Source of the DNA: an uncultured Spirochaetaceae bacterium
GTDB lineage: Bacteria; Spirochaetota; Spirochaetia; DSM-27196; SLST01
NCBI GenBank assembly: GCA_964537725.1
Contig: CAZICD010000003.1
Coordinates: 5,120 to 66,599, forward strand
Direction: 5' to 3'
Length of the DNA stretch: 61,480 bases
Positions 17,618-37,218 of this stretch are shown here, piece after piece. Every line of letters begins with the position of its first letter. The stretch's first letter is position 1. The notes beneath the pieces are model-generated. The model had not been told where the DNA came from and made no database searches. It saw only the letters and a program-made list of their open reading frames with translations. The translations under genes and the position numbers were made by a program.

Positions 17618-18484
17618 ATGCAGGGAAGCCGGACAATGACGACGACCGAGAACCTGATCGACCAGCTCCAGCGACGCGTCGAAGCCGACGGTACGTGGGA
17701 GGTGAGCTCGGACGAGCTCGCCGACCGCTTCGACACCGTGGACTACTACCGTGCGGTCTACGAGGCCGCGCAGGTCAGCGTGGACATCTACACCCCCGAT
17801 AACGTGGGAGAGTTGCTCGTGCTCCTCGACCACCTCACCGGGCGTGACTACCGCGAGGCGTTCCGCGAGGCCGGGCTCTACCTGACACACGAGGATCGTA
17901 TCGATCTCACCGAGCGCTTCACGCGCACCGTCCGACACAAGATCGTCCTGCACACGCCGGAGCCCGAGACCTTCCGCGCGATGCTGCGCGAGTTCCGACG
18001 CTACGACCGGGCGGAGTTCCACTACCTGAGGACCTTCTTCGACACCGACGAGCTCGTACGCCGCTGTACCGACGAGTACCTCGAGTCGCGCGCGGCGCCC
18101 GCCCTCGAAGCGACGGTGGACGCCTACCTTCGCCTCCTTCTCCAGCGCCACATCGTCGACCTGCACACGCTCGCGCCGGCGCTCATGGAGATCCTGCGCA
18201 CGGTCGCGCGCCACGAGGGAGCGCTTCCGGGTGCCGACCGCGGGGACGACCGCGGGGACGGAGAGGACGACGCGGGAGAGCGCCGCCCGTCAGCCGGGGC
18301 TGCCGACGATCGCTCGTGGGCGCTCCGGGTCCTTGGACTCTCGGCGCGCGACCCGTCGCCGAACGAGATACGCGATCAGTACCGCAGGCTCATGCGGCGC
18401 TACCATCCGGACATCAACCCGGACGGTCTCGAGGCCGCGAAGGAGATCAACGAGGCCTACGGCGTCTTGATCGACCGCGCGTAG
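17618..18484 (+). CDS. J-domain protein (C-terminal DnaJ domain, uncharacterised N-terminal region)
   Basis: C-terminus reads [16 protein letters not shown]...[11 protein letters not shown], with the HPD tripeptide. The alternative ATG at 17636 follows AGGGAAG. Confidence 0.8.
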
Positions 18485-18498
18485 CGGCGAACCGCTAC
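18481..18498. terminator. 7-bp hairpin with a CGAA loop spanning both convergent stop codons
   Basis: GTAGCGG-CGAA-CCGCTAC. It contains the TAG of the J-domain gene (18482..18484) and the TAG of the GGDEF-EAL gene (complement of 18495..18497). No U-tract follows. Confidence 0.3.
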
Positions 18499-21335
18499 CA
18501 GCGTGGATCGGCTTCGAGGAGCTTTCCGGCTTCCTCCGCCGGAACCGGGCGGCTGAACAGGTAGCCCTGCCCGTACTCGCTGCCGAGCGTGCGGAGCGCG
18601 GTGAGCTGACTGGTCGTCTCGATTCCTTCGGCGATCACGGTCTTGTTCAGACCATGGGCGAGCGAGACGATGTTCGTCACGATCTCGCGACTCTCGGCCT
18701 CGGCCTCCATGTTGCCCACGAAGCTCTGATCGACCTTGAGGACGTCGAAGGGGAATCGATGCAGGTAGCTCAGGCTCGAGTACCCGGTTCCGAAGTCGTC
18801 GATTCCGAGCTGGATGTCCAGCGACTTCAGCCGCTCGAGGATTTGCATGCTCGTCTCAACGTTGCGCATCAGGCCGCTCTCGGTGATTTCCAGCTTGACG
18901 CAACTGGGTTGGACATCGTTCCGGTCGATGATCGCGGCGATGCGGTCGACGATCCCGGGGTGCGTGAACTGCTTCACCGAGAGGTTCACGCTGATCATGA
19001 ACTCACGGTCCGCGCCGAGCGAACGGCGCCACGCGCACGCCTGCTCGAGCGCCCGCGTGAAGACTCGCTCGCCCAATGGGACGATGAGTCCGGTCTCCTC
19101 GGCGAGGCCGATGAACCCTCCCGGAGTGACGACGCCACGCTCCGGATGGATCCAGCGAGCCAGCGCCTCGAATCCCGCGATGCGACCGGTCTCCAGCGAC
19201 ACGAGCGGCTGGAACCAGGGTACGATCCGGTCCTCCTCGATCGCGCGGGTGAGCTCGGCTTCGGTCTGCAGCGCGTCGAGCGCCTCCTCGTACATGGTCG
19301 CGTTGAAGATCTCCGCCCGCGAACGCCCGGCGCTCTTCGCCCGGTACATGGCGGTGTCGGCGTCGCGCAGGATCGACTCCGCATCCTGGTGGTTTTCGGT
19401 GGGCAGAACGATTCCCACGCTCGCGGTCAGCGAAACGGGGCTGCCCGCGAGCTCGAGCGGACGCGCGATCTGCTCCCGGACTTCGCGGGCCATGCCGAGC
19501 GCCCGGCGCGAGTCGGGCACCGGAGCGAGCAGGACGCCGAACTCGTCGCCGCCGAGCCGGGCGACCGTTCCCGAGTCACCCACGAAACGACGCAACCGCT
19601 CGCCGACGCGTTGCAGCACGTCGTCTCCCGCCTTGTGTCCCAGCGACTCGTTGATGACCTTGAACCGGTCGATGTCGAGAAGCATGGCCGCGTACGAGAC
19701 GGATGGATCGCGCTGGGCCAGGGCGATCGTCTGATCGAGTCGTTCGGCGAGGAGCGCCCGGTTGGGGAGGCCGGTGAGCGAATCGTGGAACGCGTCGTGC
19801 AGGAGCTGCGCCTCGGCCCGTTTGCGGTCGGTGACGTCGGTGAAGTAGATGTGGACGTTACCGGCATCGCGAATCGGGTGGTACGTCCATTCCAGGTACA
19901 CGTCGCCCATCTTCGACTCCACCTGGTGCTGTTCGGTGGAGCCGGCGAGCAGCCGTTTCACGACGTCCCGGTGGTTCCCGGGAAGGAGTCCGGTCAGGTC
20001 GGCGTTCTGCTCGTCGAGAAAGCGCTGCGCGGCCGGGTTTCGGTAGACGACCTCACCGTCGGCGTCGGCGGCCAGAACCCCGTTCGGGTTCCGTCGCGGG
20101 AACTCGGCGAGCTGGACGATGTTGTTCACCATCACGGTCGTGTGATCGTAGAGCTCGCGCAGATCGTCGGAGAGATCCGTGCGCAGCCGCGCCGCGTAGT
20201 CGCCGTTGGCGATCCGCCGGGTGTAGTCGATGATGCCGTCCACCGAGCGCGTGACCGTCCTGCGGATCCAGACGAGCAGCGCTGCGACGATCGCGAAGAT
20301 GGCGACCGTCGAGGCGATCGTCGCTATCCGCCACACGACGACGGTGCTCTGCCGGTCGTCGATCGCGGCCTGGATCCCCTGCGTACCCGCGCGGTAGAGT
20401 TCGTCGGTCACGTCGAACAGATGGCGGCCGGTCCCGAGGACGTCCGCGGGTGGCGATGAGCCGCCGTCCATGCGACGGTCGAGCATCCCCATCAGCTCGG
20501 CGTGGGTCGTGCGGAACCTCGCGAGTTGCGTACCGATCGATCGTCGCATGTCAGGACGTGGACCGAACCACCTTGAGTTCTCCGCCTGCGCGAAGTCGAT
20601 GAGCTGCACGATCCGCACGCGCGCGAGGTTGTCGAGGAGCGTCTGGAACGCGGCGAAGCCCTCCGAGCGATTCGGGAAGGCGATGACCTGATTCACGATA
20701 CGGGCGTACTCGGGGAGGTAGACCATGACGCCTCGGATCATGGCGTTCGTATCAAGACCCGGGTCCTGCGTCGCGCCGGAGAGGTCGAGCACCGACGCGC
20801 CCGTTCGCACGAGCGAGTCCAGAAGCGTCGCGTACTTTGCGGCCGTAGGGTCGCTACGGTAGTCGATCCACCGGCGCTCGAGCTCGACCGGCGAGAAGTC
20901 CCCGAGTCCCCGAACGGCGAGTCGCTGCTCATCGATGCCCAGTCGATCCTCCACGGCGGCGTGGTAGTCGAGAAGCCGGTCGAATGCGTCCTGCACCAGG
21001 CTCGCCGGGTTCTCCATCTCCTGCGCGTCGGCATCCGATTCTCCTGGCATGCTCATGTACTCGATCTGCCAGGTCGACAGCGCGTGCTGGACCGCGTAGA
21101 CGCGCCGCGCGTACTCGATCCCGTCGTCCTCGCGGCGTGCGAATCGGGCGTTCGCCGCGAATCCGGCGTCGAGGACGATGACGAGCGCGAGCGTGGGGAT
21201 GACGAAGGCGAGGTAGCCGATGAGCAGCTTGCGCGAGATGGGCAGCCCGCTCAGCCGCGCGCGAAGGCTCCTACTGCCTGCGCTTCCTCGCGATGTAGAT
21301 CTTCCGTTCTGCGACCGGATTGTGTTCTCCTCCAT
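18495..21335 (-). CDS. membrane sensor with HAMP-PAS-GGDEF-EAL domains (c-di-GMP synthase/phosphodiesterase)
   Basis: Motifs RLGGDEFGVLL, FEALARW, DDFGTGYSSL. Two TM helices bracket a large N-terminal sensor domain. ATG 21335 is the only in-frame start upstream of the first TM helix. Confidence 0.85.
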   Translation of the reverse strand: MEENTIRSQNGRSTSRGSAGSRSLRARLSGLPISRKLLIGYLAFVIPTLALVIVLDAGFAANARFARREDDGIEYARRVYAVQHALSTWQIEYMSMPGESDADAQEMENPASLVQDAFDRLLDYHAAVEDRLGIDEQRLAVRGLGDFSPVELERRWIDYRSDPTAAKYATLLDSLVRTGASVLDLSGATQDPGLDTNAMIRGVMVYLPEYARIVNQVIAFPNRSEGFAAFQTLLDNLARVRIVQLIDFAQAENSRWFGPRPDMRRSIGTQLARFRTTHAELMGMLDRRMDGGSSPPADVLGTGRHLFDVTDELYRAGTQGIQAAIDDRQSTVVVWRIATIASTVAIFAIVAALLVWIRRTVTRSVDGIIDYTRRIANGDYAARLRTDLSDDLRELYDHTTVMVNNIVQLAEFPRRNPNGVLAADADGEVVYRNPAAQRFLDEQNADLTGLLPGNHRDVVKRLLAGSTEQHQVESKMGDVYLEWTYHPIRDAGNVHIYFTDVTDRKRAEAQLLHDAFHDSLTGLPNRALLAERLDQTIALAQRDPSVSYAAMLLDIDRFKVINESLGHKAGDDVLQRVGERLRRFVGDSGTVARLGGDEFGVLLAPVPDSRRALGMAREVREQIARPLELAGSPVSLTASVGIVLPTENHQDAESILRDADTAMYRAKSAGRSRAEIFNATMYEEALDALQTEAELTRAIEEDRIVPWFQPLVSLETGRIAGFEALARWIHPERGVVTPGGFIGLAEETGLIVPLGERVFTRALEQACAWRRSLGADREFMISVNLSVKQFTHPGIVDRIAAIIDRNDVQPSCVKLEITESGLMRNVETSMQILERLKSLDIQLGIDDFGTGYSSLSYLHRFPFDVLKVDQSFVGNMEAEAESREIVTNIVSLAHGLNKTVIAEGIETTSQLTALRTLGSEYGQGYLFSRPVPAEEAGKLLEADPRW

Positions 21336-24126
21336 CGTACCAGTGGCGATCCTGTCTCGCTGCGGACGTGCGACCGGCGGTCTCCTGCTCGTACGCCTCG
21401 GCGACCTGCCTCCGGAGCTCGGCGTAGCTGGGAAGCTCCGAGCGGTCGGCGGTCGCGGTCGCGGCCTCCGGTCGTCCCGCCGGCGGCGCACGCCTCAGGC
21501 GCGCGAGCACCCTGCCCATGCGACCCGGCTCGCGCGACGAGTCGTCTGCGCGGTCCCGACGCATGGTGGGCGTCACGATCGAACCGATGGGCAGAACGAG
21601 TTTCTTCACGACGAGCTCGACGATCAGAAGAGCGATCGCGGCCACCAGCAGCCAGCGCCAGAGCGTGTCGCGGAACGTGCTCCCCCCGAGCGCCGTCTCG
21701 AAGAGCGCGTCCGCGTCGTCGGCCGCGAGCACCTCGCCGCCGCCGCGCGCCGCGACGGATGCGAGCCGGTCGAAGTCGGTCTCGAACTGGATGTACTCCC
21801 GAGCGAACGGTACGGAGAGCCCGTACGGTTCGGGCCGATTCTCGTCGTCGCCGAAGACGGTGACGATGTAGCCGCCCTCTCTGCTCGTTTCGAGCTGCGC
21901 CTCGTATCGGCCCGGCTCGGTCTGTTCGAGCGCCACTTCGTACGGATCGCCGCGCGGCGGCTGCACGCGGGCCGAGAGGTCGAGCAGGTTGCGGAAGCTC
22001 CCCTCGGCCGACAGCGCGTCGACGACCATCGTGGTCGTGTCGGCGCCGCGGTCGAAGCGAACCCGGAAGTTGGAGGTCCCGGCCGGCCGCTGCGCCCAGC
22101 GTACCGCCTGCGCGAGGATTTGCTGGTAGCCGTCCCAGCCGAGCCAGTTCACCCCCCACTTCGCGCGCAGATCCGACGTGAACGCGACGCTGCGCCCGAG
22201 GCCGTACTGCCAGCTCGCGAGGACGGGATTGGATCCGGTCCCGGCGAGCACCATCTGGGAGCCGGTCTTCTGGTAGGAGAGTACGAACCCCTCGAGCGGC
22301 GGGATGTCCTCGGGCGCGATGCCTTCGACGATCGGCGTGCGATTGACGAGCCGGGGCACGAAGGTCTCTTCGACGATGAGGTTCCGACTGACGATCGTTG
22401 TCTCGGCGGCGAAGATCCGGGGGACGCTCTTCGAGTCGGCGGTGTGGTAGCTTCGCCCGCCGCCCCAGTCGGCCATGTTGGTCATGAGCTCCCGGTCGGA
22501 GCTCGAGCCGATCGAGACCGTCGACACGGTGATCGAGTCCTCGCCGAGCTCGTCGATGATGCCCTCGAAGTCGGCGTCGTTCGTCAGCCCGTCGGAGAGC
22601 ACGATCAGGTGCTTGACCGCGGCCTCCTGCTCGCTCAGGACGCGGTGCGCCTCGCGCAGCGCGCCTTCGAGCACGGTGCCGCCGCCGGAGGCGAGCCGCG
22701 ACAGGTCGCGGATGATCGTCTGCCGGTCGCCGGCGCGGGTGATGGGCACCGTCCATTCGAAGTCCGCGTCGAAGGCGATCAGCCCGGTCGTGTAGAACGG
22801 GTTCATGATCTCGATCGCGGAGATCACCGCCTCCTTGACCAGGTCGAGCTTCGTCGAGCCGGAGACCTCGACCGCGCCCATGCTGCCCGACTTGTCGATG
22901 ACGAAGACCATCGCGAGCGACGGGATCTTCATCGTGGAGGTCACGTCCATGTCGACCGGCAGCGTCCGCTCGATCGGGGTCCGGTAGTAGCCGCCCGCCC
23001 CGAAGCTCGCGTCGCCGCCGAGCATGAGGAAGCCGCCGCCGGTGTCGCGGACGTACCGCTCGATCGCCTCCATCCGCGGGACCGACATGTCGTACGCCGG
23101 GACGTTGTCGAAGATGACCGCGTCGTAGGGGATGAGGTCGCCGACTTCGGTCGGCATCGCGTCGCTCGGGCGTACCTCGACGTTGATTCCCTGGCTCTCG
23201 AGCGCCGCGAGCACCGGTTCGGCCGGGTCCTGCGCGACGTAGAGCACGGCCGGCTCTCCGGTGACGCGCACGAGCGCCTCCGACTCGTTGTTGATCGCGA
23301 TCGGATCGTCGAGCGTCGAAACCGTGACGCCGTAGCGGTGCACGCCGGTTTCGGCGAACCGTCCCTGAAAGGTGATGACGTTGTCGCCGCGGCCGAGCCG
23401 TACGCGGTCCTCGCCGTAGTACTCGCCGTCGCGGAAGACCGTGACGGTGGCGTCCTTGGTCTCGGTCGCCGAGACGACGACGTTGAACTCGTGGGTCTCG
23501 TCGAGTCTGACTTCAGGCGGCGCGTCGATGCGGCGGACGAAGACCTCGCCCTCCGAAGGCCGCGTGGGAAGCGGCACGGTGAAGACCTCCACGCCGGCGT
23601 CTGATGCGAGCCGGGCGGCGTCCGCGGCGTCGCCGCTGGTCTCCTGGCCGTCGCTGAGCAGCACGATGCGTCGCGGTCGGTCGTCCTCGAAGAGCGAGAG
23701 CGACCGCAGGATCCCCTGCGACAGGTCGGTCGCACTCGTGGTCACGATCGACTCGCGGCTGACCTGGGTGAGCCCGGACTGGAGCCCCCGCTCGACGGCG
23801 ACCTCGTCGCCCACGAGCACGATCGCCGCCCGGTCGTCGGGGGACGCGCGTTCGAGCGCCCGCTCGACGAACGCCCGCGCCTCGCGTGCGCCGTCCGGAC
23901 CGACGCTGTCCGAGACGTCGAGCGCGAAGACGACGTCGATCCCCGTTTCGGCGTCGCTCTGCTGAAGGCCGGCCACGACGAAGACGAGCGCAGCGATCGC
24001 CACGACTCGCAGCACGAGCGGCACGATCCGGCGCACACCGGGGCGTCGCCGACCTACCACGAGCGCGGCGACGAGGAGCGGTACCAGGATCAGCAGCAGC
24101 AGCGCGAGCGGGTAGAGCAGTCTCAT
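21271..24126 (-). CDS. large membrane protein with two VWA domains and a GATase1-like domain
   Basis: MIDAS motifs DVSDS and DKSGS. Also VIFDN...GGGFLMLGGDASFG. N-terminal and C-terminal TM helices. The ATG at 24126 shares 1 nt with the upstream stop. Confidence 0.8.
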   Translation of the reverse strand: MRLLYPLALLLLILVPLLVAALVVGRRRPGVRRIVPLVLRVVAIAALVFVVAGLQQSDAETGIDVVFALDVSDSVGPDGAREARAFVERALERASPDDRAAIVLVGDEVAVERGLQSGLTQVSRESIVTTSATDLSQGILRSLSLFEDDRPRRIVLLSDGQETSGDAADAARLASDAGVEVFTVPLPTRPSEGEVFVRRIDAPPEVRLDETHEFNVVVSATETKDATVTVFRDGEYYGEDRVRLGRGDNVITFQGRFAETGVHRYGVTVSTLDDPIAINNESEALVRVTGEPAVLYVAQDPAEPVLAALESQGINVEVRPSDAMPTEVGDLIPYDAVIFDNVPAYDMSVPRMEAIERYVRDTGGGFLMLGGDASFGAGGYYRTPIERTLPVDMDVTSTMKIPSLAMVFVIDKSGSMGAVEVSGSTKLDLVKEAVISAIEIMNPFYTTGLIAFDADFEWTVPITRAGDRQTIIRDLSRLASGGGTVLEGALREAHRVLSEQEAAVKHLIVLSDGLTNDADFEGIIDELGEDSITVSTVSIGSSSDRELMTNMADWGGGRSYHTADSKSVPRIFAAETTIVSRNLIVEETFVPRLVNRTPIVEGIAPEDIPPLEGFVLSYQKTGSQMVLAGTGSNPVLASWQYGLGRSVAFTSDLRAKWGVNWLGWDGYQQILAQAVRWAQRPAGTSNFRVRFDRGADTTTMVVDALSAEGSFRNLLDLSARVQPPRGDPYEVALEQTEPGRYEAQLETSREGGYIVTVFGDDENRPEPYGLSVPFAREYIQFETDFDRLASVAARGGGEVLAADDADALFETALGGSTFRDTLWRWLLVAAIALLIVELVVKKLVLPIGSIVTPTMRRDRADDSSREPGRMGRVLARLRRAPPAGRPEAATATADRSELPSYAELRRQVAEAYEQETAGRTSAARQDRHWYDGGEHNPVAERKIYIARKRRQ

Positions 24127-25964
24127 CAATGCCTCCGTGCCCAGACGATCCAGTCGGCGACGAGGACGAGGAGCGCGAGCAGCGCGATCCAGTGCCACAC
24201 GGGGTACCCGGCTGCCCCGACGATGACCTGCTCGCCCTCGGTTCGCGTCGCGCTGCCCAGTCTGTTGGCGAGGTCGGATTCGGCGGCGTTGGCGAGCGTT
24301 ACCGCGAAGTGGCTTCGGAACGACTCGCCGCGCACCTCGTACACGCCAGTCTGTTCGGTGCGCGCGAACTCGAACGGACTCGTGCGGGGCGTCGATCGGA
24401 CCACCGTCCCGTCCGGCAGAATCACCACGACCTCTTCGCCCGGCGGAACGTAGAGCGGGACGACGCTGCCCACCGACGCGTAGCCCACGTCTCCCGCCGG
24501 GGCGACCGGCGCGAGCCACTCGATGATGTTGTTCATGAGGACCGGGAAGCTGCCGCGCAGCGCGATGTCCGAGCTCCCCAACGCGAAGGTGGTGCCCACG
24601 AGTGTGAGGTCGTCGCGTCGGTACGTGTAGAGCAACGGCGCCTCGCCGGCGGTGGCGAGGACCGTCGCGCGCGGGTTCATCTCGCCCACCGCGTAGCTCC
24701 CGATCCTGATCTGGTCGAGCCGCACCCCATCGAGGACCGGGTGCGAGGTGCGCACCGACACCGTCTGCTCGAGCTCACGCGTGTCCATCGCCGTGAACGG
24801 GCCGTCGGGAAGCGCGGTTCCGAAGGCCACGACGTTTCCGCGCAGCCGGGCCGGCCCGGAAACCTGGTCGAGGACGAGGATGTCGAAGGCAGAGTCCTGG
24901 TTCACGTCCTCGCCGACGGTGAGCTGGACGCCCGGATAGATCGACAGGAAGGACTCGAGGAAGAGGTTCCCGGGTGTGACGAGCTGCACGCGCACCGGCC
25001 GCTCGCCCGACGCCGCAGCGAACGCGCGGTCGTCCACGCCGAGCGCGTCGTCGTTGTCGACGAGCTCCGCGGTGTAGACGGTACCCTGCGTCCGCGGGAT
25101 GACCGCAGTGATCAGTCGCTCCTCGCCGGGCTCGAGGTCGAGCGACCGGACGGAGACGGGCTCGTCGTCGGCGGTGAGCCTGTAGTCGACGACCGCGGCG
25201 GTGGTCGAGTAGTTCGCGACCGCGGAGAGCACCTCGAAGGCCGAGCCGTCCGGTCGTTCGCGCAGCTCGAAGGAGGTGATCGCGAGGTTTCCGCGCGCGT
25301 CCTCGCCGGTTCCGTCGTCCGCCTCGGTCCCTACGGTCGCGAGCGTGACCGTCTGCGGCAACTCGGCGAGCGCGCCCGGTGAGACCGCGCCGTCGGTCAC
25401 GAAGACGATCTCCGCGTCCGGGCCCGGCGCGAGGCCGCGCAGAAGCGCCACCGCGCGCGCGAGGTCGTTCGGACCGTCGGAGGCCTCGAGCTCGCGGATC
25501 GCCTCGTAGACCGTGGTTCGATCGGCGGTGAAGGTCTGGAGCACCGTCGGTCGAGGGCCGGCGGTCACGAGCATGACGCGGCTGTTCCGCGGCGCCCTGC
25601 CCACGATTTCGCGCGCCCGGTTACGCGCGAGGTCCATCCGCGCGACGCCACCGGCCGCGCTCTGCATGCTCGCGCTGTCGTCGATCATGACGATGATCTC
25701 CCGCGACCCGGTTGTCGCCGCGGTCTCGACGATCGGCTGAGCGAGCGCGAGCGAGGCGAGCAGCGCCGCGATGAGCTGCAGGAGCAGGTTGACGTTGCGC
25801 AGCAGCCGCGGCCGCATTCGCCGCGAGTGCTGATCGGAGATCTCGCGCCACAGATAGAGCGACGAGACCTCCTGTCGGCGCCGCTCCTGGCGGAACAGAT
25901 GGAGCAGGACGATCACCGGGATGGAGAGCAGCAGAAGCAGACCGAGTGGATTCGCGAAGCTCAA
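24126..25964 (-). CDS. BatA-like protein (N-terminal double-TM aerotolerance-regulator domain plus VWA)
   Basis: N-terminus MSFANPLGLLLLLSIPVIVLLHLF and MIDAS DDSAS. The TTG start forms a TTGA overlap with the DUF58 stop. Confidence 0.8.
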   Translation of the reverse strand: MSFANPLGLLLLLSIPVIVLLHLFRQERRRQEVSSLYLWREISDQHSRRMRPRLLRNVNLLLQLIAALLASLALAQPIVETAATTGSREIIVMIDDSASMQSAAGGVARMDLARNRAREIVGRAPRNSRVMLVTAGPRPTVLQTFTADRTTVYEAIRELEASDGPNDLARAVALLRGLAPGPDAEIVFVTDGAVSPGALAELPQTVTLATVGTEADDGTGEDARGNLAITSFELRERPDGSAFEVLSAVANYSTTAAVVDYRLTADDEPVSVRSLDLEPGEERLITAVIPRTQGTVYTAELVDNDDALGVDDRAFAAASGERPVRVQLVTPGNLFLESFLSIYPGVQLTVGEDVNQDSAFDILVLDQVSGPARLRGNVVAFGTALPDGPFTAMDTRELEQTVSVRTSHPVLDGVRLDQIRIGSYAVGEMNPRATVLATAGEAPLLYTYRRDDLTLVGTTFALGSSDIALRGSFPVLMNNIIEWLAPVAPAGDVGYASVGSVVPLYVPPGEEVVVILPDGTVVRSTPRTSPFEFARTEQTGVYEVRGESFRSHFAVTLANAAESDLANRLGSATRTEGEQVIVGAAGYPVWHWIALLALLVLVADWIVWARRH

Positions 25965-26841
25965 TGGACGAAGACCCCCCGTCTGAGATAGCTGAACACG
26001 ACGTCCTCGAACGGGATCCGATTGGTCGTCCGCAGATACTCGATGTCGTGACTGAGGCAGAACTCTTCTATCTCGCCGAAGAAGATGCCGAGTCGTCGCT
26101 TGTATTCGTCCACGGTCTCCGGCTCCACGTTGAGCTCGGTCTCGTCCTCGGTTTCGCCGTCGATCAGCCTGAACGGTCCCTTGAACCTCGGGTCGAGCTC
26201 GTCCTCGGCCATGACCTGGATCAGCATGACGTCGAAGCGACGGTAGAGCAGGGCGCGCAGACCCTCCATGTAGCCGCCCGGGTCGAGGAGGTCGGTCAGC
26301 AGGATCGCCAGCCCGGGACGCTTCGTGCGCAGCGAGTAATCGCGCAGCGTGCGGTTGAAGTCGGTACGGCCGGACGGCTTGAGCGAGGCGATGTAGTCGA
26401 AGATGGAGAAGACGTGCGACGTCTGACGCACCGGCTGCAGCGAGTGCTCGATGCCCTCGGCGAACGCGCTCACGCCCACGCGGTCGAGGTTGTTCACCGC
26501 GAGGTAGCCGAGCGCGGCGGCGAGTCTCCCGGCGTACCAGAGCTTGGTGGGTTCGCCGAACGCCATGGACCGGCTGGTATCGAGCAGGATGTGAACGGTG
26601 AGGTTTTCCTCCGCGGTGAAGACCTTCACGAACAGCCGGTTCAGCCGACTGTAGATGTTCCAGTCGAGGTAGCGGAAGTCATCGCCGGGCTGATAGAGCC
26701 GGTAGTCGGAGAACTCCAGCGAGGCGCCGCGGTTGATGGAGATGTTCTCTCCGCGCGACACGCCGGAGCGGATCTTGCGCGCGAGCAGCGACAGCTGTTC
26801 GAGCTTGCGGAGAAAGGTCTCGTCGAGGAGGGTGTTTGCCA

Positions 26842-26842
<1 letters not shown>
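25961..26842 (-). CDS. DUF58 (vWA-like) protein
   Basis: Motif FSDYRLYQPGDDFRYLDWN and intact MIDAS DTSRS. GTG start shares 1 nt with the MoxR stop. Confidence 0.85.
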
Positions 26843-27847
<1,005 letters not shown>

Positions 27848-27858
<11 letters not shown>

Positions 27859-29386
27859 TCTGTGCTCCTTCCTCGGCTGCGAGTGTCAATCTCAGAAAGT
27901 AGTTGCGGACCAGCCGCTGCAGCTCCGGCGGCGTCTCCTCGCGATTCACCGCTTCTTCGACGATCCGTTCGAAGATCACGTCGCGTTGCTGTTCGGTGAG
28001 CTCGCTCGTCGCCTCCGACGGCAGCTCACGGATGATGATGTCCATGACCGTATTGTCCGTTACGATGCCCTGGATCTCCCGGAAGACGGGGCTCGACCCC
28101 TCGGGTCTGCGATAGTCGTCGTCCATCCGGTCCTCCACCGCGACGCTGCCGCCCTGCTGGCCGCCGGCGTCGTCGCCGCCTTCGCCCGGATCGTCCTCCG
28201 GGGGCACCGGCGGCGCCTGTCCGCCTCGCTCGACGCCCGCGCCCTCGCCGGCAGCTTCTCCGGTGTCGCCCTCCATGCCTTCGGACAGCTCGGCGAGGCC
28301 GGTGCCCATCTGCTGAAGCGCGCGCTGCGACTCCTCGAGATCGCGGGTCAGATCGCTCTGAGCGTCCTCGTCCTGCTGCGGCCGGTTGAGCTGGTCCATC
28401 AGCTCGTCCACGCGCTCCTGATCGAGTCCGAGGTTGGCGTCCGGCGCGCGATCCGGCGTCGCTTCCTCGAGTGCCTCGACCATGTCGGGGATGGTATTTC
28501 CCTCCGACCGCATTCGTGTGAAGAACTCGACGACCTCCTCCTCGCCCATCCCGGATCGCAGCGCGCGACGGATGGTCGACTCGGCGTCGGGCGGGATCTC
28601 CGCGTTCTCGTTGTACTCGAGCGGCGGGGTGCGCTCGAGGTTGCGCATCTGCTCCTCGACGCGCTCGTTGAGCTGTTCGATCTGTCGGCGTGCGTCGCCC
28701 GCCTCGAGGTCGTTTCGTCGCACCTGGTCGCCGAGCCGGAGCATCTCGTCGGCGAGCTGCTGCAGCTCGTCGTTCTCCTCCGCGCGCTGCGCGAGCCGGC
28801 GTCCGGCGTCCTCGAGCGCGAGCAGCTCGTCGGCGTAGGGGACCTCCGGCGGGTCGAACCAGCCGCTCGCGTCGAGGATGAGCAGGATGCCGAGCGCGAC
28901 GGTCAGCGCGGCTACGATGCCCAGGCGACGCGGAGCGGTTGCCGGATAGACCGCGTGCGGGTCGATGTCCTCGGTGCTCTGCTCGGCCTTCTCGACGACG
29001 AGGTGCTCGAAGCTGCCCCGTGCCTTCGCAGCGGTCGACGCGCCGGTTTCGTGTTCGCTGTCGGCGCGCTGCCCGTACTCGTAGCCGGAGACCAGCAGCG
29101 ACTTGAGCCCGTAGGTCCTGTCGGCGTCGATGAGGAAGCGCGACGGATCGCGTCGGCGAACCGCGATGAACACGATCGCGGCGACGATCGCGGCGCCGTT
29201 GACGACGAGGAGCGTCCTGCCTATCGCGAAGGAGAGCGAGAAGACGACCCGCACGACCAGCGCGACGAGCGAGACGCCCAGGCTGATCGCGAGCGCGCTC
29301 ACGGCGATCTCCACGAGGAGGAGGATCCGCCACCGCATCTCGAGCAGATGCGCCAGGTCGGTGAGGTTGGGGGTACGATCATGCAT
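27848..29386 (-). CDS. hypothetical membrane-anchored protein with acidic and coiled-coil-like regions
   Basis: Three hydrophobic helices, then long charged E/D/R/Q/L-rich stretches that look coiled-coil-like (not tested) and a Gly/Asp/Glu/Pro-rich low-complexity segment. ATG 29386 has GGGAG 10 nt upstream. The alternative start is GTG 29395. Confidence 0.6.
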
Positions 29387-30158
29387 GCTGTTCACGCTCC
29401 CGTTCGGCGATGCGGCGGTGCCGCGCGAGCGAATACCAGTACAACGCCACCAGCGCGGCGATCGTTACGACGAGCGGCATTCCGGATGAGAAGAGCGGGT
29501 GCTCGACCAGCGACGTAGCCGTGCCGGTACGCATGAGCGGCGAGTCCTCCGCGTGCTGCGCGATGACCGCGTAGATGGGATTGAGAGGCTGGTAGAACTG
29601 GATGGTGGCGACGAACAGGACGGCCACGAAGATCCACCCTCCGATGACGCGGATCACGTAGCGGGTCTCGCCCGCGTGACTGATGAGCATCCCGGCCAGT
29701 CGCCCGGCAATTCCCGAAAGCAGCACGATTACCTCGCTCGCGAGCACGGCGGCGATGGGGATGCCCGCCGGGCCGGCCGCGATCACCGCGAACGGCACGA
29801 AGACGACGGTCAGCATCAGCGTATGGACGAAGCCGGCGAGGATCTTCCCGCGCGCGAGGACGCCCACGGGAAGCGCCGTGCGCTCGAGCCATTCGGAGTA
29901 GCGGATGATCTGTGCGTCCGCGAGCCGGTCGAGCCCCGCGTAGAGGCTCAGCCCGGTGACGGCGAGCACGTGCACGATGACCGTCGCCTGAAAGACCGCG
30001 GGGACGCTCTCGGTACGGAAGAAGTACATGAAGCCGCGGCTCGGCCACAGCGCGAAGGTCATCAGCACAGCCCCCGCAAGCGAGACGAGGTGGAAGATCA
30101 GATACTCCCGACGGCGCAGGTAGACCTGCGCGGCCTCCTCGAGAATGGGGTTCTTCAC
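29379..30158 (-). CDS. hypothetical polytopic membrane protein (about six helices; resembles an ABC-2 permease in shape only)
   Basis: GTG 30158 forms a GTGA overlap with the upstream stop. Hydrophobic throughout. No ATPase partner is present. Confidence 0.6.
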   Translation of the reverse strand: MKNPILEEAAQVYLRRREYLIFHLVSLAGAVLMTFALWPSRGFMYFFRTESVPAVFQATVIVHVLAVTGLSLYAGLDRLADAQIIRYSEWLERTALPVGVLARGKILAGFVHTLMLTVVFVPFAVIAAGPAGIPIAAVLASEVIVLLSGIAGRLAGMLISHAGETRYVIRVIGGWIFVAVLFVATIQFYQPLNPIYAVIAQHAEDSPLMRTGTATSLVEHPLFSSGMPLVVTIAALVALYWYSLARHRRIAEREREQHA

Positions 30159-32077
30159 GAGACGTCCTCCTCGCGGCGCACCTCGATCACGACGTAGTGG
30201 AGATCGACGGTGCGCTCGAAACCCGGTTCGATCGTGACCGGAAGCAGCGGCCGTTCGGTCCAGCCGATGACGATGATTCGCGGAGTGCCCGGGTCATCGA
30301 CGCGTTGGCGTCGCGCGAGATCGCCGATCAGCCGTGCCCGGTTCGCCGCGAGAGCGTCCTCGGGGACGTAGCTCTCCCACTCGATCTTCGTGAAGTCGCC
30401 TTCGGGCGAACCGTCCAGCACCTGTTCGGAGACGGAGTTCGGCGCCAGGTCGCCGAGCGCGGTGGGGAACCCGTTGACCAGCGCGACGAGGCCTTCGAGT
30501 CGTTGCTGAGACTCGTTCACGATCTCGATCTCCGCGAAGTCGGCACCCTCCTGAACACGGGACGAGAGGCCGAACGGGACGAGCTGGTAGGCGAGGTTGT
30601 TCTCGTAGCCCCAGCGACCGACCTCCATTCGCTGCGTCGTCCCCTCGATCTCGCTCACCACGCGGTGGTCCGTCCCCTCCATGGGGACGAGCAGGGGAGC
30701 TCCCTCGTAGCGCACCGCGTAGTCCGCTCGCTGACGGCTGAACAGCGCCGTCTCACGCGTCACCGCCACGTACCCGCTTCCCGCCACGAGATCGGCCCGT
30801 TCGACCGAGAGCGCGAGCGCCTCTACCGGCTGCAGGGCGACCGTGAGCGACACGTGCCCGACGACCGCGACGAGCGCCGTGAGCGCCACGATACCGGGGA
30901 TACCCACCAGTCGCCGCACGCGACCCTCACCGCGGGCGATCCATACGAGGATGCCACCGACGCCGATGAGGAAGCTCACCGCGAGTCCGAGCACGAGCAG
31001 GCGCGAAGGAAAGTCGTACAGCGGCAGCGAGAGCTGGTTGGCGAGGATCTCCGACTCGAAGACCCGGCGTCTGAGCTCCGTGGGCACCCCGTCCTGCGAT
31101 GCGCTACCGGAGAGCAGCGAGTTCCACAGCGCGACGCTCGTCAGGGGCGCGACCCTCACGAGATTGGCGTAGTCGATCGGCAGGAGTACTACGTCGCCGG
31201 ACCCCAGTTCCGTGCGCCGGAGGGTCGGGCCCGTCCCCGCGAACGTCGTGGCGACCACCTCGCGCGAGCGCTCGCCCGGGTCGAGCGGAAGCCCGGCCTC
31301 GAGGAACCCGGCCGCATCGACCGTGGTCGTCGTAATGCCGGTCGTCGCGAAGTCGCCGATCGGGGCGAGCGTCTGGGCGTCGGCGGGTCCGAAGTGAGCG
31401 CCTCCCGAGACGACGAGGCGTCCGCCGCCTGCCACCCAATCGCGGATCGCAACGACCTGGCGTTCGGTGAGCTCCTGCAGTCGGGCGTCGTGGATGACGA
31501 TCGTGTCCACCGCCTCGTACCCCTGCCACTGGTCGGGAAGGTACGTGGGAAGCGGATACACGATGTCGAGCACGCGACGGTCGCGGGTGTTGTACAGCGG
31601 CAGAAGGAAATCGAGGTTGGGTCTGCGCGCGAGGACGAGCGTCAGCTTCGCCGGTACGCTCTTGCCGAGCAACTCCTGTTCCTGCTCGTGGACGATGTCT
31701 CCCCCGTCGGTGATGCGCACGCGCAACGGATAGACGGTCGTCTCGATCGGCACGACGAACGAGAACGCCTTGCTCGAGCCGGAGATCAGCTCGACCTCTC
31801 GCGAGTAGCGGAGCGTGGGGCGTTCGGTCTCGAGGTGCGCCCCGCGGACGATCTCGATCTGCAGCTCGCCGTCGACGTCGTTACCCAGGTTCTGCACCGT
31901 GAGGTGGACGGGCGTCCAGCTGCCTGCGCGGAACACGCCGCTGAAGCCGACGACCGCGTCCACGTCGAGCGCGTACTGCGCCCACAGGGCCGTCAGGGGG
32001 AGGAGCGTCAGCGCTGTGATTATGAGCGATTTGCGCAGGTCTGCCACGATTCCTAAGGTACAACGGCTTCGGCCCAT
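30155..32077 (-). CDS. hypothetical exported/membrane protein with a GATase1-like (GldG/DUF4350-like) motif
   Basis: ORF 30155..33481 trimmed to ATG 32077 (alternative GTG 32047). Signal-like N-terminus LIITALTLLPLTALWA, motif TIVIHD...GGGRLVVSGGAHFG, and two central TM helices. Confidence 0.6.
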   Translation of the reverse strand: MGRSRCTLGIVADLRKSLIITALTLLPLTALWAQYALDVDAVVGFSGVFRAGSWTPVHLTVQNLGNDVDGELQIEIVRGAHLETERPTLRYSREVELISGSSKAFSFVVPIETTVYPLRVRITDGGDIVHEQEQELLGKSVPAKLTLVLARRPNLDFLLPLYNTRDRRVLDIVYPLPTYLPDQWQGYEAVDTIVIHDARLQELTERQVVAIRDWVAGGGRLVVSGGAHFGPADAQTLAPIGDFATTGITTTTVDAAGFLEAGLPLDPGERSREVVATTFAGTGPTLRRTELGSGDVVLLPIDYANLVRVAPLTSVALWNSLLSGSASQDGVPTELRRRVFESEILANQLSLPLYDFPSRLLVLGLAVSFLIGVGGILVWIARGEGRVRRLVGIPGIVALTALVAVVGHVSLTVALQPVEALALSVERADLVAGSGYVAVTRETALFSRQRADYAVRYEGAPLLVPMEGTDHRVVSEIEGTTQRMEVGRWGYENNLAYQLVPFGLSSRVQEGADFAEIEIVNESQQRLEGLVALVNGFPTALGDLAPNSVSEQVLDGSPEGDFTKIEWESYVPEDALAANRARLIGDLARRQRVDDPGTPRIIVIGWTERPLLPVTIEPGFERTVDLHYVVIEVRREEDVS

Positions 32078-32133: not shown

Positions 32134-32180
32134 CGCCGTCGCGAGATAATTGCTTATACAAATATTCCCGCCGATTTGTG

Positions 32181-32209
32181 TTGACGGTCCGCGGGGCGAG
32201 AACCATATT
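32181..32209 (+). promoter_or_regulatory. candidate promoter for the reductase/TVP38 pair (TTGACG-17-CATATT)
   Basis: Followed by GGAGGAGG at 32229..32236 and the ATG at 32240. Confidence 0.4.
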
Positions 32210-32239
32210 TGGCGCACCGTACTGGGTGGAGGAGGTCCG

Positions 32240-33697
32240 ATGGCACGATTTTCGCATGACGTAATCATCCTCGGAGGCGGCTCCGGTGGCCTCACGACCG
32301 CCGTAGGCTGCGCGCAGCTGGGCATGAAGACCGCGCTCGTCGACAAGGAACGCCTCGGGGGCGACTGCCTGCACTACGGGTGCGTCCCGTCGAAGACGCT
32401 CATTCGCACCGCGACCATCGCGCAGCAGGCGCGCGAGGCCGAGCGCTACGGCCTTCCTCCCCTCGACCCGGGCCCGGTCGACATGGGCGCCGTGAACGCC
32501 CGGATCGCCGGGGTGATCGAGGGCATCGCGGTGCACGACTCGCCCGAACGTTTCAACAAGCTCGGCGCGGAGGTCTTTCTCGGCCACGCCGAGTTCACCT
32601 CGCCGCACGAGATTCGCCTGAACGGAAGCGAGACGCTGTCCGCGGCGAAGATCATCCTCGCGACCGGCAGCTCGCCGCGCGTCATTCCCTTCCCGGGCCT
32701 CGAGGAGGCCGGGTACATCACGAATCTCGACGCGTTCTCGCTCGATCGTCTGCCGCAGCGCCTCGTCACGATCGGCGCCGGGCCAATAGGTCTGGAGCTC
32801 AGCCAGGCGTTCGCGCGTCTGGGGTCGCGGGTGACCGTGATCGACATCGCGCCGCAGGTCCTGCCCCGCGAGGACGCCGACATGGCCGACGTGGTCGCGG
32901 CTCGTGCCGCGAGCGACGGCGTGGCGTTCCGATTGGGGGCGAAGATAGGACGCGTGGAGCGCGACGGTGCGACCCGGCGGATCGTGCTCACAAACGCCGA
33001 GGGGGTTGAAGAGACCATCGACGCCGATGAGATCCTCGTCGCGGTCGGCCGCCAGGGGAACACCTCCGGGCTCGGGCTCGAGGCGGCGGGTGTCGAGGTC
33101 GAGAAGAGCTTCGCCACGGTGAACTCGAAGCTGCAGACGAGCCAGAAACACATCCTCGGGGTCGGTGACGTGAACGGGCGCTTCCTCTTCACGCACGTCG
33201 CGGGGGCCGAGGGCAGCCTCGCGGTGCGCCGCGTCGCGCTGCACGCCGGCGGCAGCATGGACTACCGCACGGTGCCGTGGGTGACCTACACCGAGCCGGA
33301 GCTCGCCTCGGTGGGCTACAACGAGGCGCGTGCGAAGGAGGCCGGGATCGACTACCACGCGGTCGTCGAGTCGTACGAGTCGAACGACCGCGCCCGAGCC
33401 GAAGGCGAGACCGAGGGGCGGATCAAGATCCTCCTCGACCGCAAGGACCGCGTGATCGGGACGCAGATCGTGGGGCTGCACGCAGGCGAGCTCCTCGCGC
33501 CTTCGCTCTACGCGGTGGCCTCCGGGTGGAAGGCGCGTCAGTTAATGGGCGTCACCTATCCGTACCCGACGCTCTCGGAGCTGCATCGCAAGGCGGTCTC
33601 CGGGTACATGGCTCCGAGGCTCTTCAACGATCGCATCCGGGGACTGCTCCGCTTCGTCTTCCGCTACCGCGGCGACGGCGGCGAGGGATACGAGTAG
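32240..33697 (+). CDS. pyridine nucleotide-disulfide oxidoreductase (MerA/Lpd-like flavoprotein disulfide reductase)
   Basis: FAD motif GGGSGGLT and redox-active GGDCLHYGCVPSK. The C-terminal dimer-interface motif reads YPYPTLSE. Confidence 0.85.
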   Translation: MARFSHDVIILGGGSGGLTTAVGCAQLGMKTALVDKERLGGDCLHYGCVPSKTLIRTATIAQQAREAERYGLPPLDPGPVDMGAVNARIAGVIEGIAVHDSPERFNKLGAEVFLGHAEFTSPHEIRLNGSETLSAAKIILATGSSPRVIPFPGLEEAGYITNLDAFSLDRLPQRLVTIGAGPIGLELSQAFARLGSRVTVIDIAPQVLPREDADMADVVAARAASDGVAFRLGAKIGRVERDGATRRIVLTNAEGVEETIDADEILVAVGRQGNTSGLGLEAAGVEVEKSFATVNSKLQTSQKHILGVGDVNGRFLFTHVAGAEGSLAVRRVALHAGGSMDYRTVPWVTYTEPELASVGYNEARAKEAGIDYHAVVESYESNDRARAEGETEGRIKILLDRKDRVIGTQIVGLHAGELLAPSLYAVASGWKARQLMGVTYPYPTLSELHRKAVSGYMAPRLFNDRIRGLLRFVFRYRGDGGEGYE

Positions 33698-33705
33698 GGG
33701 GAACT

Positions 33706-37206: not shown

Positions 37207-37218
37207 CGCGCGGGTTCG

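Follow-up and report, generated by a model that had tools for sequence, protein, structure and literature searches.

A conserved seven-gene MoxR–DUF58–VWA locus of Spirochaetota with a GldG/DUF4350-like protein and a predicted ABC-2-fold permease

Described MoxR–VWA systems and the layout of the locus

Operons that combine a MoxR AAA+ ATPase with DUF58 and BatA/VWA proteins occur in a wide range of bacteria and have been tied to stress tolerance, envelope integrity and virulence (PMC5700661 among others), and MoxR/VWA pairs are known chaperone-like modules (PMC8926400; PMC3893208). For BB0173, a BatA-like protein, the VWA domain was located in the periplasm by experiment (PMC5700661); the same paper groups the genes RL3499–RL3502 of Rhizobium leguminosarum (Vanderlinde et al. 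[quoted passage not shown] In Pseudomonas aeruginosa, a MoxR-like ATPase and a VWF-domain protein belong to the multi-gene Arc2 cluster (PA4317–PA4323), which protects against an envelope-directed attack, that of the T6SS toxin ColA, and whose other components are described only as uncharacterised (PMC8926400). The closest described relative of the locus studied here is the DUF4350 (arCOG01314, GldG-like)–MoxR–vWA neighbourhood (Makarova, Galperin and Koonin 2015, PMC5898192), a mainly archaeal gene set predicted to form a secretion or membrane-remodelling complex.

We analysed a 61,480-nucleotide stretch of DNA from an uncultured, high-GC Spirochaetaceae bacterium, hereafter referred to as the window. 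Its minus strand carries, between positions 18495 and 32077, eight open reading frames (G1–G8), all of them open as originally predicted. The start/stop overlaps that had been claimed for every junction were recovered on measurement, at 4, 8, 11, 1, 4, 1 and 65 nt from G1/G2 to G7/G8. The six junctions within G1–G7 reappear at no fewer than 10 orthologous loci, where the gaps lie between −20 and +1 nt; their overlaps are thus not a matter of chance. A terminator scan found no terminator-like site on the minus strand inside the operon, which is weak evidence, and a promoter scan gave a sole minus-strand promoter-like site (32047–32019), which lies within the G1 reading frame and is probably spurious. 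No c-di-GMP riboswitch or other RNA element was found in the window. The Walker, MIDAS, GGDEF and EAL motifs that had been described as intact were all located in the translated products (Walker A, GVPGLGKT; Walker B, LLADEINR; MIDAS, DTSRS, DDSAS, DVSDS and DKSGS), the Walker and MIDAS residues being invariant across the aligned orthologues, and Pfam searches bore out the domains named for G4–G8.

The Bat operons of Borrelia (bb0170–bb0176) and Leptospira (bat) encode, like this locus, MoxR followed by DUF58 and a BatA_N plus VWA protein; their BatB-like VWA membrane protein may have its counterpart in G7. The locus differs from them in that its G7 protein has two VWA domains and a GATase1-like domain, and in the three extra conserved genes, G1–G3, upstream of MoxR. 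As the original prediction had it, only the core of MoxR, DUF58 and the BatA-like protein resembles the Bat operon, and G1–G3 fall outside the description of that operon. In the locus as in the complex of PMC5898192, one predicted operon brings together a COG0714 MoxR ATPase and a vWA protein with a DUF4350/GldG-like protein, which is anchored in the membrane and bears a flavodoxin-like domain outside the cytoplasm, and with further membrane proteins that have 2–3 or ~5 TM helices; the combination of a DUF4350 protein, a COG0714 ATPase and a vWA protein is represented here by G1, MoxR and DUF58. However, the Ig-like/S-layer-type proteins of that complex are not seen here, the large BatA/BatB-like multi-VWA/GATase1-like pair is not listed among its components, and its multi-TM proteins are not called ABC-2 fold, the likeness of G2 and G3 to the archaeal ones being one of description only. 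Pfam scans of the operon products gave no match to pfam07760. The Arc2 cluster, set beside the operon by description only, shares the theme of a MoxR-like ATPase with a VWF-domain protein. The locus had been proposed to be an undescribed system, which overstates the case: the MoxR–DUF58–BatA core is well known, and the association of a DUF4350/GldG-like membrane protein with MoxR, a vWA protein and small multi-TM proteins was predicted in 2015 (PMC5898192). To the MoxR–DUF58–BatA/VWA core the locus adds three strictly co-inherited partners, of which two can now be placed, G1 as a GldG/DUF4350-like protein and G2 as an orphan permease of the ABC-2 fold.

The products of G1–G7

G4 (26842–27858; 338 aa) is a MoxR-type AAA+ ATPase. 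It matches the Pfam families AAA_3 (4.5e-60) and AAA_lid_2 (5.7e-18), its closest solved structure is 2R44 (5e-74), and its Walker A and Walker B residues are invariant in 10 orthologues. The start of G5 (25961–26842; 293 aa) overlaps the G4 stop by 1 nt. Its product matches DUF58 (5.4e-38) as well as VWA_2 and is VWA-like, with the MIDAS motif DTSRS, of which D88, S90 and S92 are invariant in the orthologue alignment. The two proteins form a MoxR–DUF58/VWA pair in which G5 is presumed to be the adaptor of MoxR, and TM helices are predicted in neither.

G6 (24126–25964; 612 aa) is a BatA-type protein. In the predicted topology, a BatA N-terminal double-TM segment is followed by a periplasmic VWA domain (DDSAS), by beta and alpha/beta domains and by a C-terminal TM helix. 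It matches BatA (2e-14) and VWA_2 (8.7e-17) in Pfam and TIGR02226 in NCBIfam, its MIDAS residues are invariant in the orthologues, and hhalign relates it to the N-terminal half of G7 (98%), with homology over the first ~370 residues. G7 (21271–24126; 951 aa) likewise begins with a double-TM N-terminus and a VWA domain (VWA1, DVSDS). A second one (VWA2, DKSGS) sits between the stretches that Pfam matches to a GATase1-like domain, and the protein ends with a TM helix and a basic tail of ~107 aa that is predicted to be cytoplasmic; in the alignment, the MIDAS residues are invariant and the tail is conserved. The G7 profile matches BatB (3IBS), 4JDU and the GATase1-like proteins 2GK3 and 3SOZ. VWA1 matches 3IBS at 2.9e-8, and the NCBIfam BatB model scores 17.6 bits on G7 against a cut-off of 350 bits. 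In total, four conserved MIDAS sites are spread over G5, G6 and G7. The RL3499–RL3502 operon also encodes BatA_N-type and GATase1-like membrane proteins of a kind similar to G6 and G7; equivalents of G1–G3 are not known among its four genes.

The original prediction had called G1–G3 uncharacterised. None of them reaches the curated cut-off of any family in Pfam or NCBIfam, and to this extent the term holds, but all three can now be described. G1 (30155–32077; 640 aa) is a GldG/DUF4350-like periplasmic protein. The predicted layout is an N-terminal TM anchor, a beta-sandwich in the periplasm, an alpha/beta domain that is DUF4350/GldG-like and of the class-I-GATase-like kind, a pair of TM helices and, at the C-terminus, a beta-rich domain. 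G1 itself matches DUF4350 weakly (E = 0.0018, under the Pfam cut-off), and 33 of 39 members of its family match it, the best at 7e-6. The family comprises 45 clusters, and its named members are all from Spirochaetota. Remote relatives (~26% identity; the context of locus L005) adjoin an ABC ATPase and an ABC-2 permease. With the whole AF2 model (pLDDT 87), Foldseek returned just generic multi-beta-domain proteins with TM-scores between 0.1 and 0.18, among them transglutaminases, AP2 mu and GH2 enzymes, which is uninformative. By hhalign, G1 gave no match to G6 and a weak one to G7 (E = 0.0086), limited to the GATase1-like "GGG...GG" strand-turn region, which is only suggestive of a fold shared by G1 and G7.

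G2 (29379–30158; 259 aa) has no Pfam match of its own, and searches of Pfam and NCBIfam at relaxed thresholds gave nothing usable. Its AF2 model (pLDDT 91) has six TM helices, and the best Foldseek matches of the model are all membrane subunits of ABC-2/type V ABC exporters (TMq 0.5–0.67), including ABCG25, ABCG5/8, NosY, Wzm, KpsM, TarG and the CcmABCD complex. The G2 profile extends to bona fide ABC2_membrane proteins of Pfam (E ~1e-10), and hhalign aligns G2 with an ABC2_membrane_2 permease at E = 0.0026. On the evidence of the model and these profiles, G2 is predicted to be a permease of the ABC-2 (type V ABC exporter) fold. Conservation is strongest in the N-terminal helix, with the invariant residues N3, P4 and E8, and in the TM2–TM3 "coupling" loop, with the invariant S88-E89-W90. 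When clustered at 50% identity, the G2-like family, for which Pfam has no model, yields at least 294 representative clusters; of its distant members, all five that were inspected in their gene context marked the system. G2 shows no similarity to the 281-aa membrane protein of L005. The transmembrane fold of G2 is common to the ABC-2/type V exporters with periplasmic partners (GldA–GldF–GldG, NosDFY and Wzm–Wzt), and their GldG-type auxiliary protein resembles G1, remote relatives of which occur in true ABC operons. Unlike these exporters, the locus has MoxR AAA+ as its sole ATPase, and at the loci examined neither the operon nor its vicinity encodes a nucleotide-binding subunit: ABC_tran was found neither in the operon nor in any gene called within flanks of up to 10 kb at L001, L002, L004, L018, L019 and the P0180-bearing contig. 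The partner of G2 may be an ABC ATPase whose gene lies at another place in the genome.

G3 (27848–29386; 512 aa) has three TM helices, a predicted cytoplasmic loop of 78 residues with a conserved LIDADR motif, and a long acidic coiled-coil region that closes with a conserved motif, RE..PPEL..LVRNYFLRL. Its family comprises 45 clusters, and the C-terminal motif is retained in the L019 counterpart at ~24% identity. We found no relatives of G3 in Pfam, NCBIfam or the PDB; relaxed Pfam and NCBIfam thresholds gave nothing usable, and the PDB profile search returned coiled-coil noise only.

Conservation of the unit and alternative readings

The window, L001, L002, L004, L006, L007, L008, L010, L011, L014 and the P0180-bearing contig share one order of G1–G7; in L018, L019 and L025 these genes are present and interrupted by contig ends alone. 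The order is kept wherever a related locus is long enough, even with G1–G3 at 23–28% identity, and the overlapping junctions are retained among the closer relatives. The predicted linkage of the three upstream genes to the MoxR–DUF58–VWA core was upheld by the gene-neighbourhood comparison, in which they co-occur at every locus that could be checked. Thus, the conserved unit is the seven genes G1–G7, conserved both as a set and in their order. Its surroundings are housekeeping genes in stable synteny. All named carriers are MAGs of Spirochaetota, and every carrier seen is a MAG or a metagenome contig. A scan of genome contigs with the G7 alignment found close Spirochaetales relatives only and one of metagenome contigs with the G2 alignment found four short loci; a wider taxonomic spread was not found by these scans, both of which used very specific peptide patterns.

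G8 (18495–21335; 946 aa) is a bona fide GGDEF–EAL protein (Pfam EAL, 1.3e-72; GGDEF, 1.9e-45), in which Pfam, NCBIfam and the predicted topology delineate a TM helix, a periplasmic sensor of ~280 aa, a second TM helix and HAMP, PAS, GGDEF and EAL domains. It lies downstream of G7 in 4 of 15 distinct loci (the window, L001, L006 and L009) and is absent from this position in the other 11. In L007, whose G7 is 83% identical, a clean 2591-bp deletion scar of G8 adjoins an intact G1–G7, and no other GGDEF/EAL gene was found within ~10 kb of the loci that lack G8. The 65-nt overlap with G7 depends on the ATG at 21335. No other canonical start lies closer upstream of the first TM helix, and the sole alternative, the GTG at 21491, would make the overlap longer. 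L006 and L009 lack this ATG at 21335, and in L001 the orthologue begins 26 nt past the G7 stop; the junction is therefore not a conserved feature. The occurrence in 4 of 15 loci and the scar in L007 identify G8 as a lineage-specific accessory outside the conserved unit, acquired separately and dispensable for the system, although it may be co-transcribed with G1–G7 in the lineage of the window. The GGDEF–EAL gene had been proposed to be a component of the system and to wire it to c-di-GMP signalling. With G8 present in 4 of 15 loci, deleted in L007 and unreplaced by any nearby GGDEF/EAL gene, and with no riboswitch, neither proposal was sustained: the unit is one of seven genes, c-di-GMP wiring is not a property of it, and the enzyme is an optional neighbour rather than a part of the machine.

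An eight-gene machine, with the GGDEF–EAL sensor as an integral input or output and the MoxR–VWA assembly wired to c-di-GMP, would account for the same-strand overlap of G8 with the G7 3′ end and the lack of a predicted terminator between the two in the window, as well as for the same position of G8 in L006, L009 and L001; in Borrelia, moreover, expression of the diguanylate cyclase Rrp1 raised the expression of bat-like genes (PMC5700661). We nevertheless consider such a machine quite unlikely in view of the 11 loci without G8, of the scar beside an intact G1–G7, of the unconserved G8 start and overlap and of the missing riboswitch and neighbouring GGDEF/EAL genes, which together have already largely refuted c-di-GMP wiring as a property of the system. 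Even less credence is due to a canonical Bat (Bacteroides aerotolerance) operon protecting against oxygen or oxidative stress. Bat homologues have been reported in all spirochaete families (PMC3557215), and MoxR, DUF58, a BatA_N plus VWA protein and a BatB-like VWA domain are all encoded here; however, Pfam found BatC/BatE (TPR, SH3), BatD (PF13584) and DUF4381 in none of the eight products, and TPR, SH3, BatD and DUF4381 were also absent from the neighbour genes at orthologous loci. The lack of BatC, BatD and BatE argues that this is not the canonical operon. In addition, G6 (612 aa) and G7 (951 aa) are far longer than the solved BatB-type VWA chains matched by the G7 profile (215–218 aa) and carry GATase1-like domains, the Bat operon described in PMC5700661 contains nothing that corresponds to G1–G3, and the oxidative-stress role of Bat proteins itself was not supported in Leptospira biflexa (PMC3557215). 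An anti-phage or conflict system of the MoxR–vWA ternary type is extremely improbable. It would be in keeping with a secondary Pfam match of G4 to bpMoxR (1.5e-11), but the AAA_3 match is far stronger (201.7 versus 44.2 bits), beta-propeller, VMAP and effector domains are absent by Pfam, and the locus lies in stable synteny among housekeeping genes. As PADLOC models matched none of the eight proteins, we rejected the defence-system reading.

The ABC-2 fold of G2 raises the possibility that G1 and G2 supply the membrane portion of an ABC-2 exporter that is GldAFG-like and has its ATPase encoded elsewhere, and that the whole operon is a secretion system in which MoxR/VWA aid assembly or gating. 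The conserved positions of G2 are those that touch the ATPase in real ABC transporters, remote relatives of G1 adjoin an ABC ATPase and an ABC-2 permease, and a secretion system was predicted for DUF4350/GldG-like, MoxR and vWA neighbourhoods by Makarova et al. 2015 (PMC5898192). On the other hand, the gene tables examined, which cover flanks of up to 10 kb, show no ABC ATPase, no substrate gene is evident, and the operon has no outer-membrane component; we therefore regard an exporter as conceivable but improbable. An unlikely and more speculative reading is that an ABC-2-type permease and its GldG-like periplasmic partner have lost their ABC ATPase and are instead driven or gated by the MoxR AAA+ ring through the DUF58 adaptor. 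The motor would then dock in place of the nucleotide-binding domain, and the energy of ATP hydrolysis would go into export or into mechanically remodelling a multi-VWA scaffold in the periplasm. If true, this would constitute a previously unrecognised class of envelope machine.

A proposed mechanism

The reading that we prefer, with a probability of roughly 0.55, is that G1–G7 form a translationally coupled seven-gene operon whose products build a VWA scaffold in the inner membrane, facing the periplasm, with the cytoplasmic MoxR–DUF58 pair assembling or remodelling it. Judging from hydropathy, the positive-inside rule and the published BB0173 and ABC-2 topologies, G1, G2, G3, G6 and G7 would make up an inner-membrane complex with its large domains in the periplasm, and G4 and G5 would be cytoplasmic; the basic loops and tails on which this topology is based can be read in the sequences. 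The original prediction of an envelope-associated, ATP-driven assembly remains tenable as regards the mostly membrane or periplasmic products and the lack of predicted TM helices in MoxR and DUF58, but not as regards its c-di-GMP part. The identities of G1 and G2 point to a membrane-embedded, possibly transport-like or mechanotransducing role, at least for this branch of the MoxR–DUF58–BatA/VWA family.

According to the scaffold model, the MoxR hexamer would spend ATP, via DUF58, to assemble the membrane complex or to switch its conformation. The candidate cytoplasmic handles that MoxR/DUF58 might grip are the basic C-terminal tail of G7, at residues 845–951, and the 78-residue loop of G3, at residues 77–154, and a further one may be provided by the N-terminal helix of G2 together with its coupling loop. 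The periplasmic VWA MIDAS sites could then bind acidic ligands, possibly the acidic region of G3 or components of the envelope. Phenotypes of related operons of the MoxR/Bat/Cmd kind suggest that the complex would serve to maintain the envelope or in export. In L. biflexa, however, deletion of all bat genes had no growth, morphology or oxidative-stress phenotype (PMC3557215), so a role in envelope maintenance is insecure even for the relatives.

A cytoplasmic AAA+ motor that acts on periplasmic VWA domains presents a topological puzzle, and the Bat systems pose the same one.

Gene order of G1–G7 and the downstream GGDEF-EAL gene

The window, whose computed G+C content is ~68%, carries eight uninterrupted ORFs on the minus strand at positions 32077–18495 (G1 to G8, in the order of transcription). 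Their junctions overlap by 4, 8, 11, 1, 4, 1 and 65 nt, in agreement with the original prediction, whose start codons we used, and Shine-Dalgarno-like purine-rich stretches (GGAGG, AAGGAG, GGGAG) lie 5′ of the G2, G3, G4, G5 and G7 starts. Pfam and NCBIfam profile searches upheld the domains proposed from the sequence. By Pfam, G4 is a MoxR protein (AAA_3, 4.5e-60, with AAA_lid_2), G5 a DUF58 protein (5.4e-38), G6 a protein with a BatA N-terminal domain and VWA_2, and G7 a protein with two VWA domains and a GATase1_like domain; G8 has the architecture HAMP-PAS-GGDEF-EAL (Pfam/NCBIfam). G1 gave a single sub-threshold DUF4350 match in these databases, and G2 and G3 gave zero matches. The Walker A and B, four MIDAS (DxSxS), GGDEF and EAL motifs can all be read in the translations, and the alignments show the Walker and MIDAS residues to be invariant among orthologues. 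Plus-strand ORFs of 600–800 aa run antisense to G8, G7 and G1 (18654–20459, 21220–23604, 30197–32056 and others); they encode repetitive, Arg/Asp/Gly/Val-rich sequences, are of a kind typical of high-GC DNA and are most likely artefacts.

Homologues of G1, G2 and G3, searched among 5.8 billion proteins, form 45, 43 and 45 clusters, respectively, and each named one belongs to a Spirochaetota, Spirochaetales or Spirochaetaceae MAG. The G7 relatives found by scanning species-representative genomes with a G7 alignment were Spirochaetales MAGs in every case, and the carriers in the present data are uncultured throughout. We gathered related loci (L numbers) by exact-protein look-up, by this genome scan and by a metagenome scan with a G2 alignment, and placed the window proteins on them by tblastn. 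The G1–G7 order was identical in every locus of sufficient length. It is complete in the window, L001, L002 (one contig with L013), L004, L006, L007, L008, L010, L011, L014 and the contig encoding the homologous protein P0180, and is truncated solely by contig ends in L018, L019 and L025. The order is kept even where G1, G2 and G3 are only 26–28% (L014) or 23–24% (L019) identical to those of the window, as against 60–66% for MoxR. In the closer relatives, the junctions are −4 or −1 for G1/G2, 0 to −11 for G2/G3, −8 to −20 for G3/G4, −1 to +1 for G4/G5, −4 for G5/G6 and −1 for G6/G7; small gaps were seen in L014 alone, the most distant locus. Because the order and the short overlaps are conserved, we infer that G1–G7 are a single inherited, tightly coupled unit, and the proposal that G1–G3 belong with the MoxR core is thereby borne out.

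The GGDEF-EAL gene behaves differently. A G8 orthologue lies 3′ of G7 in the window, L006, L009 and L001 only, whereas in 11 other distinct loci G7 is directly followed by a different gene: a convergent DnaJ-domain gene (L002, L007, L008, L010, L011, L012, L017 and L025), a convergent methyltransferase gene (L004 and L018) or an aldose epimerase gene (P0180 contig). Of these loci, L007 is closely related to the window (83% identity for G7, 93% for MoxR). Its positions 12671–13196 align to window 21456–21224 and then skip to 18632–18345, window 18633–21223 (2591 bp) being exactly missing. What is left of G8 there is the first ~37 and the last ~46 codons, with the start ATG mutated to AGG, the gap being a clean deletion scar of the G8 orthologue beside an intact G1–G7. 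The G8 start is not conserved either: an ATG is lacking there in L006 and L009, and in L001 the gene starts 26 nt past the G7 stop. The amino acid similarity across the G7/G8 overlap arises because the strongly conserved G7 C-terminus is read in the other frame. No further GGDEF or EAL gene was found in the DNA flanking the loci that lack G8, and no riboswitch or other Rfam element in the window. The c-di-GMP link, which had been made to hinge on conserved synteny of the GGDEF-EAL gene with the MoxR core, is therefore refuted as a feature of the system by the gene's absence after G7 in 11 loci, its unconserved start and the L007 scar. Thus, the original interpretation is supported in part: several genes, among them three unannotated partners, make up a conserved MoxR/VWA envelope system, but there are seven in place of eight, and c-di-GMP is no built-in part of it. 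Co-transcription of G8 with the operon is plausible in the lineage of the window. In Borrelia, the diguanylate cyclase Rrp1 is reported to raise bat-like gene expression (PMC5700661).

Fold and family context of G1, G2 and G3

The six-TM protein G2 yielded a high-confidence structure model (pLDDT 91), whose neighbours in the PDB were ABC-2/type V ABC exporter transmembrane subunits throughout (ABCG25, ABCG5/8, ABCG1/2, NosY, Wzm, KpsM, TarG and the CcmABCD complex); the top matches had a probability of ~1.0 and TMq of 0.5–0.67. In a profile-to-profile alignment of G2 with an ABC2_membrane_2 permease, the "NP..E" N-terminal helix and the "E..T.P....GK" loop align (E = 0.0026). The invariant G2 residues are located in this helix and in the TM2–TM3 loop, which in ABC-2 structures are the ATPase-contacting elements. 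No ABC ATPase was found in the operon or among the flanking genes called in the loci with examined gene tables.

Searched exhaustively, an HMM profile of G2 matched at least 294 representative clusters (50% identity) at E ≤ 1e-3, mostly of 240–265 aa. Eight of the ten matches scanned against Pfam (244–263 aa) had no Pfam domain, and two matches with E ~1e-10 are bona fide Pfam ABC2_membrane proteins. All five of the distant G2-like proteins whose context was checked (E 1e-38 to 2e-9) sit, up to the contig ends, in the same arrangement: G1-like, G2-like, G3-like, MoxR, DUF58, BatA/VWA and then VWA/GATase1-like genes. For this reason, the unannotated ABC-2-like G2 family, for which Pfam has no dedicated model, appears to mark the MoxR system, and this system is wider than the 45 close clusters imply.

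The G1 model (pLDDT 87) has a TM anchor at the N-terminus, followed by a beta-sandwich, an alpha/beta domain and two TM helices, and a beta-rich domain at the C-terminus. DUF4350 is matched by 33 of the 39 G1 family members, and there is a weak alignment between the alpha/beta domain and the GATase1-like domain of G7. The sole remote relatives of G1 (~26% identity, DUF4350 + DUF7408) adjoin an ABC ATPase and an ABC-2 permease. One of them, P0043 (807 aa), belongs to a gene cluster at L005 8029–15372 whose other products are an FHA-domain protein, an ABC ATPase, a membrane protein of 281 aa and an ABC2_membrane_2 permease; it looks like a GldAFG-like ABC system without MoxR. Given this context and the ABC-2 fold of G2, the G1 and G2 proteins resemble a GldG/GldF-type pair from which the ATPase has been lost. 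G3 has three TM helices, a conserved cytoplasmic loop (LIDADR) and a ~340-residue acidic, coiled-coil-like region ending in the conserved RE..PPEL..LVRNYFLRL; it found no relatives in Pfam, NCBIfam or the PDB.

Comparison with known systems and a possible mode of action

A canonical Bat (Bacteroides aerotolerance) operon was rejected, the BatC, BatD, BatE and DUF4381 domains being absent; compared with it, G6 and G7 are much larger and G1–G3 are extra. We also rejected a canonical ABC transporter, there being no ATPase, and a defence system, there being no PADLOC matches or effector domains. The closest description is a neighbourhood of DUF4350/GldG-like, MoxR, vWA and small membrane proteins, mainly from archaea, that Makarova, Galperin and Koonin (2015) predicted to form a novel secretion or membrane-remodelling complex (PMC5898192). 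The spirochaete operon has this theme in common but encodes, in addition, two multi-VWA proteins that are BatA/BatB-like and a permease with a recognisable ABC-2 fold. Our literature searches found no paper in which such a MoxR operon is tied to an ABC-2 permease or to a GGDEF-EAL enzyme. The operon is thus a variant of an already known MoxR/VWA type, with three previously unannotated partners.

G6 is homologous to the N-terminal half of G7 (hhalign 98%), whose profile matches the solved BatB VWA domain 3IBS and the aerotolerance-related 4JDU, as well as the GATase1-like proteins 2GK3 and 3SOZ. Hydropathy and the placement of basic residues predict that the large domains of G1, G3, G6 and G7 are periplasmic, in agreement with the experimentally determined periplasmic location of the BB0173 VWA domain (PMC5700661). 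MoxR (G4) and DUF58 (G5) are expected to be cytoplasmic, because no TM segment is predicted in either. The membrane proteins are predicted to have short cytoplasmic stretches: basic BatA loops, a 78-residue G3 loop, the N-terminal helix and coupling loop of G2, and a conserved G7 tail. This basic tail of ~107 residues (~845–951; window 21271–21591, minus strand) follows the last TM helix of G7 and terminates in the strongly conserved motif HWYDGGEHNPVAERKIYIARKRR; as a candidate, it could serve for the docking of MoxR/DUF58.

MoxR AAA+ ATPases and their VWA partners are chaperone-like modules through which specific complexes are matured or remodelled (PMC8926400, PMC3893208). In the best-supported reading, G1, G2, G3, G6 and G7 would form an inner-membrane complex, and G4 and G5, located in the cytoplasm, would engage its cytoplasmic handles to assemble it or switch its state. 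Acidic ligands, which may be the acidic region of G3 or components of the envelope, would be bound by the three periplasmic MIDAS sites. The output would probably be envelope maintenance or export, since the Rhizobium, Riemerella and Arc2 systems point the same way: mutants of Rhizobium RL3499–RL3502 have envelope defects (as cited in PMC5700661), Riemerella moxR has stress and virulence phenotypes, and Arc2 protects against a T6SS toxin (PMC8926400). Against such an output counts Leptospira biflexa, which shows no phenotype with all bat genes deleted (PMC3557215). For the role of MoxR-DUF58-VWA systems, a useful new clue comes from the orphan ABC-2/GldG-like pair.

Genes adjoining the operon in the window

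Just downstream of G1–G8, the window has another MoxR system, separate from the first (13432–17590, minus strand). It encodes a membrane protein that carries DUF4129 at its C-terminus (about 16700–17590), a 144-aa protein (16273–16707), a second MoxR only ~42–47% identical to G4-type MoxR proteins (15311–16276), a DUF58 protein with N-terminal TM helices (14034–15314) and a 207-aa multi-TM protein (13432–14055). It occupies the same place in L006, L007, L010 and L017 and is absent in L002, L008, L011 and L012. Convergent to the operon end is a gene whose product has a J domain at its C-terminus (17618–18484, plus strand); this DnaJ-domain gene adjoins G7 or G8 in most of the closer loci (44–82% identity) and is missing from L004, L018 and the P0180 contig.

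Divergent to G1 are genes for a Pyr_redox_2-type flavoprotein disulfide reductase and then a VTT/DedA-like membrane protein (32150–34422, plus strand). Both are kept upstream of G1 in L001, and the reductase gene also in L006 and L007; L002 and L004 have a PolyA_pol gene in their place. Farther on, the composition shifts across 36000–50000, with an AT skew of +0.15 at 36–38 kb and −0.16 at 44–46 kb and a G+C content down to 0.61–0.62 at 46–50 kb. Genes in this region encode GH32 (38652–40955, minus strand), GH95 (40232–43246, plus strand) and a hybrid sensor kinase of 1258 aa that contains Reg_prop and Y_Y_Y repeats (43341–47117, minus strand).
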